From an uncultured Pseudomonadales bacterium (lineage in GTDB: Bacteria > Patescibacteriota > Microgenomatia > UBA1400 > PJMF01): a stretch of DNA of 64,000 nt. Each line of letters begins with the position of its first letter. Position 1 is the first letter of the stretch. The stretch spans positions 12,354 to 76,353 of the forward strand of contig CAZYNM010000004.1 in NCBI GenBank assembly GCA_964648715.1, written 5' to 3'. This document shows positions 30,001-36,000 of this stretch, piece after piece. Made by a program: the position numbers.

Positions 30001-33000
30001 CTCTCAAAGTTAGTGGCGGTACCTTGCTGCCCTTCTAGAAGCAATCGTTTTTAGAAAAGGAAAGGCCACGCATGTCGTGGTTTTTTTGTATGAAAAAAAT
30101 ATCTAAATCAAAAAAAAGAGAATTGAAGAAAAAAGCAAAGCTTAGAAGAAAGCTTTTAAAGAGAAAAAAGTCTGAAGAATCTAAAAAGAGACCAAAAGCT
30201 TGGGAGCCGGTTAAACTCCAAATGTTTGAGATACCAAATCCATTTAAGGAAAGTGTAACTCTTGAACAAAGGAAAGCTGTCATAAAAGAAATTGGTGAAA
30301 CTGCAAACAAGAAATTCAATGAGGAGTATCCTAAAATTGCAAACTGGTTCGAAGATTATGATGCAGTATATTTACTTTCTTTTTGTGCTATGTATTTTAC
30401 CGCTTCTCCAGAAGGGATAGACCCTGAAGCAACTGGCCAATTAGATTTTCCATTCCATTTTCTAGAGCTATTACAAGCTTTTTCACTAGTCAAGCAAAGA
30501 AAAGCAACCCTTAAGCCGTTGTTGGGTAATGCGGAAAAATTAAAAAACGAAATGAGAGACATTGGTGACGTAATGATGCTGAGGCATTTAAAGGTGCTGG
30601 ATAATTTAAAAGACGAAGAACTTGAAAGATATTTTCTTAGATTTCAGATGATGGGTCAAACAACAGCTGTTAGGAATTGGGCTTACTATTATCAGATTAA
30701 AAGAACAGTGATAGACCTGTGTAAACTTATAGATAATGATTTCAAAAAAGTTTATGGAGTTAAATCTACAGTAGTTTTTGAATCTTTATTTCAACTTGTT
30801 GAATCTAGAGCCGACTTGTTAAATGAGCATCTTGATAAAGTTAGAAGTTTCTATAGAAAAAACAGCTACAAATCTGTAATTGATGCTTTTAACAAAGCAT
30901 TCCCAGAAAATAGTGCAATAGAGGGGGATGACGTAGAAGAAATTTGGGAACAATCAGGAAAGAAACTGACAGAACTTAAAGGAATGATGGTTGCTCATTC
31001 TGACTTAAAGTTAGAAAAAATTTACAGTTTTACTGTAGATGACTTGAAGGAAATTGTTGATGATGATGTTGATATCGATTTACTTCTAAGAATTATTGAT
31101 AATTTGGCTTACAGATTTGGTGACCTAAAAGACCACAATTTAGATTTTATGGTTTTAGATAACCCAGTTCATCACAAACCATTTATAAAAACTGACGAAA
31201 ACACCTACTTTAGTGCTCTCTGGGGAGTCTTTTCCCACTTTGCGCTCGATATTTTGGAAGATTTGGTATCAGTTGATGCAAGTTTAAGAAAAAAATATTT
31301 TGATAAAATAAAATCGGACTATTTGGAAGATAAAGTAAAAGATATTTTCGAAAAAAATTTCATAGATGCAAAGGTATTTAAAGGTGCCTTATGGGATGGA
31401 AATGAAAATGATTTACTTATAGTAATTGAGCCATTTGCGATAGTTGTTGAAGATAAAGCAAGGTTAGTCAGTTCTGCAGCACGAAGAGGAGCACCACTGG
31501 ATTTGCCTGAAACTCTTAAAAGGCTGATTGAAGAACCTTCAGAGCAATCACTGAGTTTTATTGATTTTCTTAAGGCACAAAAAGGTGAGATTGAGCTAGT
31601 TAATAAAAAGCAAGAAAAATTGAGCTTTGATACACAAAAGGTTAAATATTACTTACCATTGGGTGTGACTTTCCATCATCTTGGGACCATAGGAAGTAAT
31701 CTCAAAAAACTGATTAGAAGTGGAATTGTTGAAAAAAATCTTGAGGAATTAGCTCCATCAATCAGTTTTACTGATTTGGAAATTGTGCTTAGCTTACTGC
31801 CTTTACAAGCCCAAAAGATACACTACCTTGCTAGGAGAAGAGAATTTGAAGCACACGTGTTTTATGAAGGAGATGAGCTAGATTTATTAGGATTTTACTT
31901 TGACAATGGTTTTAATATAGGCGACATGGAATATTCAAGAGATTTACATCTTGATATCAGTCTTAAATCAAAAGAGCTTGACCCTTATGTTATAGGCACA
32001 GCAGAAGGAAGAAAGTTAGCTCGTCCAAAGCTAGAAATGACTAGTTGGTGGCATGACCTACTACATCGAATTGATGAAAGGAAAATGGATGGCTGGTTGG
32101 AGACGTCTTTTGTTCTTTTAAATGCTTCTAAAGAAGACCAAGAGACGTTCGAGAGTATGTACAAAGAATTAGTTAAAAAAGTCTATGAAGGTGAGACTGA
32201 GCAGCCTCACAATTGGGTAATGCTGCTTGCTGGTCCGGAAAGACGAAGATTTGCCATAGCTGGATACCCATATTTAATTCAAGATAGAGAAACAAGAAAC
32301 AACATTATGTCACAAGCTATCAATGAAGATTCAGTTCAGAAAGCAAAGGGTGCGGTTGTGATTGGTGTAAATCTCAAACAATTAGATTATCCATATTCAG
32401 TACTTGCTGCCAGAATGGAAACTGAACTTTTAGATATTTTGACTTTGGAGGAAAGCTAGCCATATGAAGTTTAGAAGCTATAGGTCTCCTTTGATGGAAT
32501 ATATGTTGGTTGCATATGGGTATGAAGAGTTAATTGGAATACATGGTGCAAAGTCTAGTCAAGAGAGAATAATAGAAGAACTTAGTAGCTATAACATTAA
32601 AGCAATCCTTGAAGTATCCACAAAGACAATTTTACTTTTAAAATCTTGGGGGGTAGCGAATAAAAAAATTCAATTGATAATATTAAAGAATTTTTTTCCA
32701 GAAAAATTTAAGTCAATGGTTGATAGGTTAAAGGAATTGAATCCAGGTGATAACTGGATATTTTTTAATGAACATACAGTACTTATCTTAATCAAGTTAT
32801 CAATATTATTTGGAAAAAACGGTGATGGACTATCGATAAAAAGCCATAAAGAAAAAAATGACTTTGGAACCTGGCTCCTGATGCTAAATAATCTGACAAC
32901 AAAGAGCGATACTAAGCATCTTTCACAAAAAAATTTGATAGAACAAAGGACAAGCCTAAGAAGGGCGTTAGCAAAGTATCAGTTTAACAGAATCGATGAG

Positions 33001-36000
33001 AGGTTGAGTTTTAAATTAGTTCGGTATAAATATATTTTTGACTATTTAAAAAGAAACCATATCAATAAAATTGATGTTGGTGACTTTTTTAAACAAGCTT
33101 CTGGAACTAGTTATGAAACGTATCTCTCAGTCACTTTTTCTCTCATTGTATATGCTGTAAACCAAACAGCAAAAGAAATTAAGGTGGAGGAAGTAAATAA
33201 AAAATGGTTAATTTGTCTAAAGAGTTATTTAAAAGATACATCATTTAGAAAAAAAACTATTGATTTAGTAGCATCCAATTTGATAGGGGAACAGGATGTT
33301 TTAAAAAATTTTCTCAATAATGAAATTGGTTCTGAGGGTTCTGTTGATGATAATTTTTTTTATGATATGAGAATTTTTTCGAGGTACCCTTTAATTGGAG
33401 AATTAGATTCTGGGTGTGTTGTTTTAACTGACCCCAGATTTTTGTTTGATAGAGCTAGTGAAGGGGCGTATTGGATTGTAGAAAATTATTTATATGAGAA
33501 CAGTCAAAAAAAACTTAGAGAAATACACTCAGAAATATGGGGGTATGGTTTTGACTCATATGTGAGGTATTTATTGAGAAATACATTTGAAAAAAGTTTT
33601 AAAACTAATTTAAACAGTGGAAATTATGAAATGACTGACGGATTGATTATTTCTTCGAACTTTGTATTTGTTATTGAAAACAAACATCATCACTGGAGAT
33701 ATCTTGCAAAGACAACTGGAAAAGAAACAGAAATGAAAACAACCTTAGAAAACTTATTTTCTAGTAAAAAAAAGAAAAAGGGATTAGGACAAATATCAAA
33801 TTTCATTAAAAAGATTAAATCTAAGGAATGGGAGTTAGAATTTGATATTTCTGATAAAGTTTTTGTTCCTACATTAGTCGTGTCAGAAGGAATTCCAATG
33901 GACTCCTACAGTAGAAAGCTTTATGAGGATAAAGCCAAAGAAAGCGGTTCATTTATTGCAGGTGAAGATGTGATGCCTTTCATAGTTATGACCGCTGAAG
34001 ATATGGAAATGCTAAGCTGTATAGCAGAATCGAATGGTGTTGAAACAGCAGCTGAAATCCTTGCGGGCTATTCAGCTAGTTTTATTTTGCAGACTGATGA
34101 AGGTTATTCTTACAACTCATTACCTTTTAAAAGCTACTTACACTATATAAAACAAGAAGTACCAGAGGGGAAGTTTCTTAGAAATAAATTCGACTTGTTG
34201 ACAAGTAGGCTTGAGAAAAGAATGTTTAGTAAAGAAAAAAGGGAGGAATATGACTCTAAAAGAGAAAATCACTAATAAGTGTATTGAGAATATAGAAGAT
34301 AGAATTGCTGGAGTTTTTAATGACCTCAAAGCATTTGTTTACATTAGAAACAATAATCTTCAACATAGGGATGAAGATATTGGCGGGGGCAACATGGTGA
34401 CTGCTCTAAGCTTGTTTAGTTGTATAAACCTCTTAGCAAAAGCCTACTACTGTACTGTAAATCCGGATAAATTTGATGATGACACTGGGCAGTGTCTGAA
34501 TGAAACTACAGCATTTTTACATTTTATGAGGTTTGTTCAAAAATCAGGTTTGGATTTAGGCCTTCCGTCTAATGGTGAAGTATTAGAGCGGGTTTGGGGT
34601 GGCTTTAGAGACTGGCTAGCTCATAGACTAACTGTTCAACCAGGAAAGCAAGTCATTAACTTTACATTCGATATTAGTAAACAGAACTCTATTCAAGAGA
34701 GTTTAGAATATGCCAAAAAGCACAAGGTATTTCAAGATGATGATAATGATGGAAGGAATTGGGTTGTAAACTGTGACGTCTTACTTGCAAGATTGCCAGA
34801 AATTGTTGAGATTACAGTAAATCATCTTAGAAATACTGATGAGATTGATAACGACCTTTTACTAAAAGTCATAGGAGCAGAGTATCCTTAAGGAAATAAC
34901 ATGAGGTTTATTAAATGGATAAAAGAACACTTGACGGTTGATAAGTATTATCAAATGAGCACAAAAGAGCTTGAGTTAGAGGCCAGTAAATATAAAATTG
35001 GTGGATATTCTGATGGAAGCAGAGTTGATAGAGACAAAATAATTCAGCAACTACTTAGAAAAGATTCAGAGAATTTTTCCCGTTTTAGTTTCATTTTTAG
35101 TTTGTTTGCTATCCTGATTAGTTTAATAGGCTTATTTCATGGTTTAAATGCAAATAAACTGTCGAAACAAGCTAATGACATTGCTCAATCAGGTAATACT
35201 TTACAGGAAGATAGCCTCAATTTTTCAAAAGACTTGAGAAGTCAAGAGTATGTGGAAGATGTTTTTAATAATTTATACCAAGATTCAAAAAACCTAGAAG
35301 TTATTCAAAAGGTTAGGTCAAACGAAATTGTTAACAGTAGGTCTGATTTGTTAGATGTTATAGATTACTTTGAGTCAACTGGTAGCTCATTTTGTCAGGG
35401 AACAGTTTGGAAATGGCATTTGAATACGACATTAAAAAATACATTAGATGGTGTTTGTAATAATCAACAAGTTTATGAGGAATTTAACGGAAAGAAAAAC
35501 GGTTTAGCTATGCTTTGTCGAGAATTTTTCCCAGAGTCCAAATTCGCACAAACTTTGCAGACTTACAATCTTCACACTTGTGCCTTTTATGATAGCTCTG
35601 AGCTGAAGAAATTAGAGGAAAATAATTAGATGAGTCTATGAAAAGTGAAATTTTAGAAAAGATTTCTAATATAGTTGCTAACAGTGATACATCTGAAAGC
35701 GATATAGACCACTTAATGACTTTAATCAGGAAGCTTAAGGAAAGTGAGGGAAAAAATCTTAGTTCTTATCCAATGTTAGGATTATTCTGTGATTGGACGA
35801 AACATACTGTTCTAAACCGTAATGCAGAAGGACATCGAATTGTTATAGAACTTAATGATAAATTAAGACTTTTAATTGAGGATGAACAAAACAAAGATAG
35901 AGTTTATGAAGAAATTACTAAGGTCATTTCTTTTGAAAGATTGCAAAATGAACTAACATCATTTTTAGTTACATATCAATTACCCGCAGATATTGTTGAA

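Follow-up and report, generated by a model that had tools for sequence, protein, structure and literature searches.

The locus described here raises the question of whether two adjacent nuclease-like genes encode the subunits of one enzyme or two separate enzymes. The window, the whole stretch of 64,000 nucleotides (nt) that was analysed, covers positions 12,354 to 76,353 of contig CAZYNM010000004.1 (assembly GCA_964648715.1) from an uncultured Pseudomonadales bacterium. Its forward strand carries gene 1 (30072..32459; 795 amino acids (aa), or 789 aa if the start is at 30090) and gene 2 (32464..34275; 603 aa), two open reading frames (ORFs) that are present as a first-pass annotation had given them at 30072-34275. 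That annotation regarded them as a duplicated pair of paralogous PD-(D/E)xK nucleases that might act as a heteromeric effector. The reading preferred here, with a probability of roughly 55%, is that genes 1 and 2 encode two self-contained FokI-like nucleases. These would be candidate single-gene defence effectors sharing one operon-like array behind a controller-type helix-turn-helix (HTH) regulator on a serine-recombinase island.

The AlphaFold models of both proteins (gene 1: predicted local distance difference test (pLDDT) 90.3, predicted template modelling score (pTM) 0.88; gene 2: pLDDT 93.8, pTM 0.93) contain an alpha-beta-beta-beta-alpha-beta core with an Asp on strand 2, E-x-K on strand 3, and a Gln on the next helix. 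The motifs from which the PD-(D/E)xK call had been made thus sit on strands 2 and 3 of a nuclease core in both proteins, as that call expected. The gene 1 core (31278..31670, + strand, residues 403-533) comprises a helix with E419, three strands with E445/D447 and E460/K462, a helix with Q492, and a further strand. In an 81-sequence alignment of gene-1 homologues E419, E445, D447, E460, K462, and Q492 are invariant. The gene 2 core (33508..33993, + strand, residues 349-510) contains D392, E405, K407, and Q443. These residues, together with P469 and E515, are at least 90% conserved among 74 gene-2 homologues, whose mean column identity is just 23%. Such conservation of the catalytic residues in both families places the motif beyond chance. 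The core fold, and the conservation across homologues of the strand-2 Asp and the strand-3 (D/E)-x-K, both features of membership in the PD-(D/E)xK superfamily, are present in the two proteins. The spacing from Asp to Glu is 13 in both proteins (D447 to E460, and D392 to E405). The motif peptides read earlier, NDLLIVIEPFAIVVEDKAR in gene 1 and DGLIISSNFVFVIENKHHH in gene 2, are both present, but the first occupies residues 446-464 and not 444-462, and the second ends at residue 410 (392-410) and not at 407 (392-407). E460 and E405, the residues proposed for mutation, were numbered correctly. Genes 1 and 2 are each predicted to be an active nuclease, and probably are.

The catalytic domains are, as modelled, of the FokI/BspD6I/HindIII structural type. 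Structure matches of the two proteins included N.BspD6I (scores of 10.5 and 10.2), the small subunit of R.BspD6I (8.9 and 9.9), FokI (8.1 and 9.0), HindIII (8.6 and 8.6), and Upx (8.9 and 8.8). McrC, Shedu SduA, Can2, NucC, Cap4, Hjc, and many type II enzymes matched lower. The longest superposition was obtained with Upx, at 434 and 350 residues. Foldseek returned only weak matches for gene 2, none at E <= 0.001, and the interpretable ones were mostly PD-(D/E)xK nucleases. Sequence searches of Pfam, NCBIfam, PADLOC, and PHROGs gave no significant match for either protein. A search of PDB sequences with both profiles gave nothing relevant, since gene 1 had no match at E <= 10 and gene 2 matched an unrelated phosphatase only. 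The sole sequence-family signal is that of NERD (PF08378), which matches gene 2 at E 0.01 over residues 385-454, within the catalytic core. At 16.8 bits it falls short of the gathering threshold of 22.1 bits; gene 1 has no match, and weak NERD matches occur in 4 of the 74 gene-2 relatives. The families proposed earlier therefore do not accommodate the two proteins: NERD is sub-threshold and for gene 2 only, and DUF4365, Cap4, and Hjc are alike at the level of the fold only.

The comparison with known systems reveals differences as well as likeness. In contrast to the FokI/BspD6I/HindIII enzymes, genes 1 and 2 are adjoined by no methyltransferase, and no methyltransferase domain was found in any ORF between 18.8 and 44.6 kilobases (kb). 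Both genes are full-length and belong to families that are normally solitary, and nothing in those enzymes corresponds to the helical domains at their N-termini or to the gene 1 C-terminal domain. Upx is a single-protein PD-(D/E)xK anti-phage system (PDB 9wuf; PMC13099982, PMC13601566). It has 1272 aa and two nuclease domains, and its canonical core (D1161/E1176/K1178) sits right at the C-terminal end, whereas genes 1 and 2 have one recognisable core per chain, central in gene 1 and in the last third of gene 2. No sequence similarity to Upx was found with PADLOC at E <= 0.1 or in the PDB sequence search. Shedu SduA, McrC, and effectors of the Cap4/NucC/Can2 type resemble the two proteins at the fold level only, without a PADLOC match. 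They have other accessory domains, and their sensor or signalling genes are not associated with genes 1 and 2.

The relationship between the two proteins is remote. BLASTP gave a marginal match over the core (E 0.047), and a profile comparison with a three-sequence gene-2 profile was not significant (E 0.1). Homology is established only by a deep gene-2 profile from an exhaustive search of representative sequences, the shallow comparisons being insufficient. With that profile, hhalign aligns gene-1 residues 331-546 with gene-2 residues 259-486 (97% probability, E 1.2e-10, 209 columns, 18-19% identity). This alignment keeps the three catalytic residues in register, along with the Gln and the blocks KVKYYLPLG / DKVFVPTLV. 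A hidden Markov model (HMM) of the gene-2 family, run against 7135 six-frame ORFs, matched gene-1-family members down to E 1e-11 and otherwise gene-2-family ORFs only. The scan is a useful specificity control, because nothing outside the two families matched. A greedy extension of the alignment, which carries no significance of its own, is collinear from gene-1 residues 67-650 and gene-2 residues 11-597 (about 500 columns). Of the two downstream blocks that had been aligned by eye, the KVKYYLPLG / DKVFVPTLV pair lies in the significant region, but FTDLEIVLSLL / MTAEDMEMLSC (ISFTDLEIVLSLL / IVMTAEDMEMLSC) lies in the greedy extension only. From the hhalign region and the extension taken together, a common layout of helical domain, winged helix, and core is drawn. 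Gene 1 consists of a basic tail, a helical domain, a winged-helix-like hairpin, the core, and a conserved C-terminal domain. Gene 2 consists of a helical domain, a winged helix, the core, and a short helical tail; its winged-helix-like segment (33208..33426, + strand, approximately residues 249-321) lies directly ahead of the core. By these alignments genes 1 and 2 are remote homologues from one putative ancient ancestor, now forming two distinct unnamed families. The description as a paralogous duplicated pair is right as to homology over the core, but they are not recent duplicates, given about 19% identity over 203-209 columns and the separate distribution of the families.

The distribution of the families bears on the opening question. 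Gene 1 has 177 or more homologues in the database; they are about 790 aa long and 40-60% identical, every one is labelled 'hypothetical', and none has a Pfam domain. The family spans more than 10 phyla, archaea included, with identities of 40-60% in many lineages, and its most distant members are still recognisable at 23-35%. A genome scan found 79 gene-1 loci in Bacteroidota, Patescibacteria, Proteobacteria, Chloroflexota, Nitrospirota, Omnitrophota, Bacillota, Verrucomicrobiota, Actinomycetota, and Methanobacteriaceae, and 83 gene-1 loci were considered overall. None of the 83 has a gene-2 relative within 8 kb of the gene-1 homologue, by tblastn with gene 2 and by the gene-2-family HMM. The closest relatives of gene 1, at 60% identity, are solitary. 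One (L095) has a MerR regulator on one side and glycolysis genes on the other, and the other (L097) adjoins a LexA-like repressor, a D12 methyltransferase, and an HNH protein. Clustering of 688 ORFs flanking the gene-1 loci yielded no conserved neighbour, the commonest being a tyrosine integrase, seen at 7 loci, and a serine recombinase, seen at 5. No conserved partner of gene 1 was found by tblastn among gene 2, the HTH, three small ORFs, the helicase, and the recombinase of the window, nor did jackhmmer find the controller-type HTH conserved upstream of gene-1 homologues.

The gene-2 family gives the same picture from the other side. It is very divergent, with proteins of about 590 aa. A word-indexed homologue search with gene 2 recovers only 3-4 proteins, so that the gene appears orphan-like, and an exhaustive HMM search at E <= 0.001 brings up 313 representative clusters, most of them covering the full length of about 590 aa. 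No gene-1 relative is present in the recovered gene-2-family loci (L002, L085-L088, and L089-L092), including L002, which holds a 60%-identical relative of gene 2. The 798-aa neighbour of the gene-2 homologue in L002 was considered as a gene-1 relative and rejected, as it is not related. No neighbour family recurs among the recovered gene-2 loci, and the genes next to the gene-2 relatives show no relationship to each other.

These findings weigh against the heteromeric effector suggested in the first pass. Spelled out, a heterodimer of genes 1 and 2 would form through the FokI-like domains and each chain would cut one DNA strand. Heterodimeric restriction enzymes of this kind, with two PD-(D/E)xK subunits and no ATPase, are known in BspD6I, BtsI, and BbvCI (PMC3017599). 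The best structural matches of both proteins are the two BspD6I subunits and FokI, whose cleavage domains dimerise (PMC3017599), and the catalytic residues are intact in both. The spacing of the genes is in keeping with such a pair: a 4-nt gap divides the TAG stop of gene 1 (32457-32459) from the gene 2 ATG (32464), and a Shine-Dalgarno-like GGAGGAAAG (32447..32455, + strand), read from the sequence, lies within the end of gene 1. The coupling that had been described is therefore present, and the tightly packed genes are probably co-translated. However, the pairing is missing from the 83 other gene-1 loci and from the retrieved gene-2-family loci, the 60%-identical relatives of each gene included. 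Both proteins are full-length and complete in themselves, with an N-terminal domain, a winged helix, and an active site apiece, in contrast to BspD6I and BtsI, whose small subunits are truncated. Like the heterodimeric type IIS/IIT class, the locus has two adjacent genes with one PD-(D/E)xK site each, but two defining features of that class, a cognate methylase nearby and the co-occurrence of the subunit genes across genomes, are absent. The heteromer is thus considered unlikely. The lack of an ATPase, which had been called unusual, is not so, since heterodimeric ATPase-free enzymes are known, as are solitary PD-(D/E)xK proteins such as the defence protein Upx (PMC13099982). An SF1-type (superfamily 1) helicase is also encoded 2.3 kb downstream on the same strand.

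One further locus adds to the case for a pair. In L071 (6990-11603, Verrucomicrobiota) a divergent gene-1-like ORF of 767 aa lies 30 nt upstream of a canonical member of 759 aa. The divergent ORF is recovered by hhalign at 98.4% probability (E 4e-15), with the E..D..ExK motif intact. This second tandem of two divergent relatives is the sole other paired arrangement seen, so that tandem pairs arise from time to time, at about 2 of 90 loci. A bolder proposal combines the two views. The gene-1 family would be a previously unrecognised, widespread single-gene FokI-like defence nuclease, and the superfamily would also evolve methyltransferase-free two-gene heteromers (gene 1 with gene 2, and L071) in which each relative contributes one strand-specific site. 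It is regarded as improbable.

The surroundings of the relatives are those of mobile and defence DNA. One gene-1 homologue lies inside a type I restriction-modification island that also holds Fic, HipA, and zeta-toxin genes, another adjoins a 1775-aa methylase-SNF2 fusion, and a third is found on a 25-kb plasmid beside a KAP NTPase and DNA methylases. Other gene-1 neighbours are GajA, PtuA, MADS genes, type I specificity subunits, TraG/TrwB coupling proteins, YWFCY proteins, and transposases. A gene-2 relative is flanked by two type III restriction-modification systems and two serine recombinases. In qualitative terms, a location in defence islands or mobile elements is found for both families. 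Judged by these contexts, both families move horizontally as single genes on integrative/conjugative elements, plasmids, and defence islands. A search for plasmid DNA similarity was negative, gene 2 is on no PLSDB plasmid, and no relatives were found in E. coli at the DNA level. A phage origin was considered and rejected, as neither family was found in IMG/VR and gene 1 has no match in the phage collection.

A narrower form of the preferred reading holds that the two proteins are orphan or modification-dependent (type IV-like) restriction endonucleases that read marked foreign DNA through their N-terminal and winged-helix domains. Solitary enzymes of this type recognise modified or marked foreign DNA and therefore need no methyltransferase, which fits solitary genes without a conserved methylase. 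The restriction-enzyme-type catalytic domain, the presence of McrC among the structure matches, the winged-helix element ahead of the core, and a controller-type HTH upstream, as in restriction-modification operons, are also consistent with it. Pfam, however, detects no modified-base reader domain (SRA, YTH, DUF3427, Mrr-N, or similar), and this more specific form is held to be doubtful.

The controller-type HTH is a 69-aa HTH_3 regulator (29829..30038, + strand; Pfam HTH_3 E 4.6e-19; PADLOC Control_protein E 4.8e-23) located 33 nt upstream of gene 1. These matches place it with the 'controller (C) proteins' of restriction-modification systems. Its start codon is overlapped by a perfect 8-bp inverted repeat, GTCAGTCA-N12-TGACTGAC (29810..29837), read from the sequence. 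Between the HTH gene and gene 1 lies a hairpin, GGCCACGCATGTCGTGG followed by T7 (30064..30087, + strand), which holds the first ATG of gene 1. The inverted repeat may be a candidate operator and the hairpin a candidate attenuator. The true start of gene 1 is uncertain by six codons, because the first ATG is inside the hairpin and the database copy of the protein begins at M7 (30090), giving 789 aa. A promoter and terminator scan of the operon was uninformative, with scores at or below shuffle expectation, and an Rfam search of the window gave no match.

As to enzymatic activity, substrate, oligomeric state, and a role in defence, we infer the following by analogy with FokI-type enzymes (PMC3017599) and solitary PD-(D/E)xK defence proteins such as Upx (PMC13099982, PMC13601566). 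Recognition of a nucleic-acid or invader-derived target would fall to the N-terminal and winged-helix domains, and the single active site of each chain would cut DNA with a divalent metal. Double-strand cleavage would need dimerisation of the catalytic domains, as in FokI. The dimer would normally be a homodimer, because both families normally occur alone. The biological role would most likely lie in protecting the host from phages or rival mobile DNA, and expression of a potentially toxic nuclease would be limited by the HTH and by the hairpin ahead of gene 1.

Several observations weigh against two independent defence nucleases. The contexts of gene 2 rest on a handful of retrieved loci, several of which are short contigs. 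The gene-1 homologues of L095 and L005 lie among ordinary metabolic genes with no visible mobile element. The defence role has no curated model, with nothing above threshold for either protein in the four family databases searched. Given the L071 tandem, the pairing may not be pure accident, and the 4-nt spacing with an internal ribosome-binding site would suit a functional pair as well. Nor does the preferred reading account for the conserved C-terminal domain of gene 1 or for the three small ORFs downstream.

That C-terminal domain (31749..32456, + strand, residues 560-795) is highly conserved at H584, Y585, R589, E591, D601, and E602, and is without an assigned fold. Residues 557-650 match the gene-2 C-terminus in the greedy extension only, and residues 651-795, approximately the last 145, have no counterpart in gene 2. 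Some gene-1 homologues bear a C-terminal SEC-C motif (L094 4032-6497; L097 2484-4928), with direct detection in P0004/L097 only. RefSeq calls gene-1 homologues 'hypothetical protein', and copies on Streptomyces plasmids 'preprotein translocase subunit SecA' (L094 and three further plasmid matches). The 'SecA' label is read as a probable misannotation arising from the SEC-C motif. At the other end of the protein, the Lys/Arg-rich N-terminal tail of gene 1 (30093..30197, + strand, residues 8-42) is a single long helix in the model (helix 12-39). Lys and Arg make up 47% of the first 45 residues, against a family median of 38%, and at least 30% in 62 of 81 members. The basic tail noted in the first pass is therefore real, and it is a trait of the family. 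In a Dehalococcoidia locus (L061 4080-7689) the gene-1 homologue is found in two strongly matching ORFs about 700 nt apart, which suggests an insertion or a disrupted gene.

Downstream of gene 2 the same strand carries three tightly packed ORFs of 226, 242, and 213 aa (34211..36279, +), none with a family match. The first of these (34211-34891) overlaps the end of gene 2 and contains FRDWLAHRL, an R-x4-H, HEPN-like candidate. In L085 (9788-10675) an unrelated 295-aa ORF without a family match has a 4-nt overlap with the gene-2 relative and contains LRHKLLHG, likewise an R-x4-H, HEPN-like candidate. The small ORFs are followed by a MazG-like pyrophosphatase (36353-36703, + strand, phrog_3301) and a DUF2075/SLFN-g3 SF1 helicase (about 36705-38552, + strand; Pfam SLFN-g3_helicase E 3e-86; PADLOC PDC-S41 E 8e-21). 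The MazG-like gene is directly ahead of the helicase gene and overlaps it (window 36353-38552). The same module, with a helicase 32% identical, is present beside a gene-2 homologue on an unrelated metagenome contig (L088 4556-6753). By sequence, the MazG-like protein and the DUF2075 helicase are a candidate separate defence module in the same array. A Cys-rich protein of 207 aa (38558-39181) comes next, with a hydrophobic N-terminus, an internal duplication (CTAGNDIDCCGKKSGYSWHENYGCY / CTAGNDFDCCLKQSGYTWYENWGCY), and no family match.

The whole block from 29.8 to 39.2 kb might be taken as one multi-gene system, with the HTH, the two nucleases, the three small proteins, the MazG-like protein, and the DUF2075 helicase acting jointly. 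All of it is on the same strand, most junctions are gaps of 4-10 nt or overlaps, and in L088 the gene-2 homologue is also upstream of a MazG-like and SLFN-g3 helicase pair. In contrast, the helicase module is missing from the gene-2 loci L002, L085-L087, and L091 and from all gene-1 loci, and none of the related loci has a homologue of any of the three small ORFs. The helicase, moreover, matches the PADLOC candidate model PDC-S41, in which 'S' is assumed, unverified, to stand for single-gene. A joint system is therefore given little credence. Least likely of all is mobile-element housekeeping, that is, a nuclease for element transfer, recombination, addiction, or exclusion of rival elements. 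Integrases, serine recombinases, TraG/TrwB coupling proteins, and transposases often adjoin the genes, but the type of element varies, some loci show none, no antitoxin-like or transfer partner is conserved, and defence cargo typically occupies the kind of position seen in these families, near restriction-modification, Gabija, and toxin-antitoxin genes.

The island that holds the two nucleases has a guanine-plus-cytosine (GC) content of about 33%, compared to 40-41% in its flanks and about 40% in the whole window; gene 1 has 34% and gene 2 has 31%. A large serine recombinase (25894..27534, - strand; Pfam Resolvase, Recombinase, and Zn_ribbon_recom) lies in this low-GC island, and the low-GC stretch also holds HTH and SHOCT genes. 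The recombinase is adjoined by a small PLD-like (PLDc_2) protein (25312-25815), possibly another candidate nuclease cargo gene. Direct repeats bracket the low-GC region at 25790-25969 / 41797-41976 (180 nt, 95% identity) and 18606-18905 / 40869-41168 (300 nt, 92%), with no Rfam match. Genes for MGMT-like and histidine-phosphatase proteins occur twice, once at 18.8-19.8 kb and again at 40.0-41.5 kb. The long repeats and the duplicated genes may represent island boundaries or tandem related islands. A second lower-GC stretch (19889-24418) contains a D-Ala-D-Ala ligase, an M15 D-Ala-D-Ala dipeptidase-like protein, and two C39-like peptidases, and may be a cell-wall remodelling or resistance cassette.

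If genes 1 and 2 are indeed two self-contained FokI-like nucleases, this would be the first functional assignment for two sizeable families now labelled 'hypothetical' or mislabelled 'SecA'. It would provide concrete candidates for new single-gene defence systems carried as cargo of mobile elements, and new FokI-type scaffolds for programmable or nicking nucleases. It would also correct the inference that adjacency and a common motif amount to a heteromeric enzyme.

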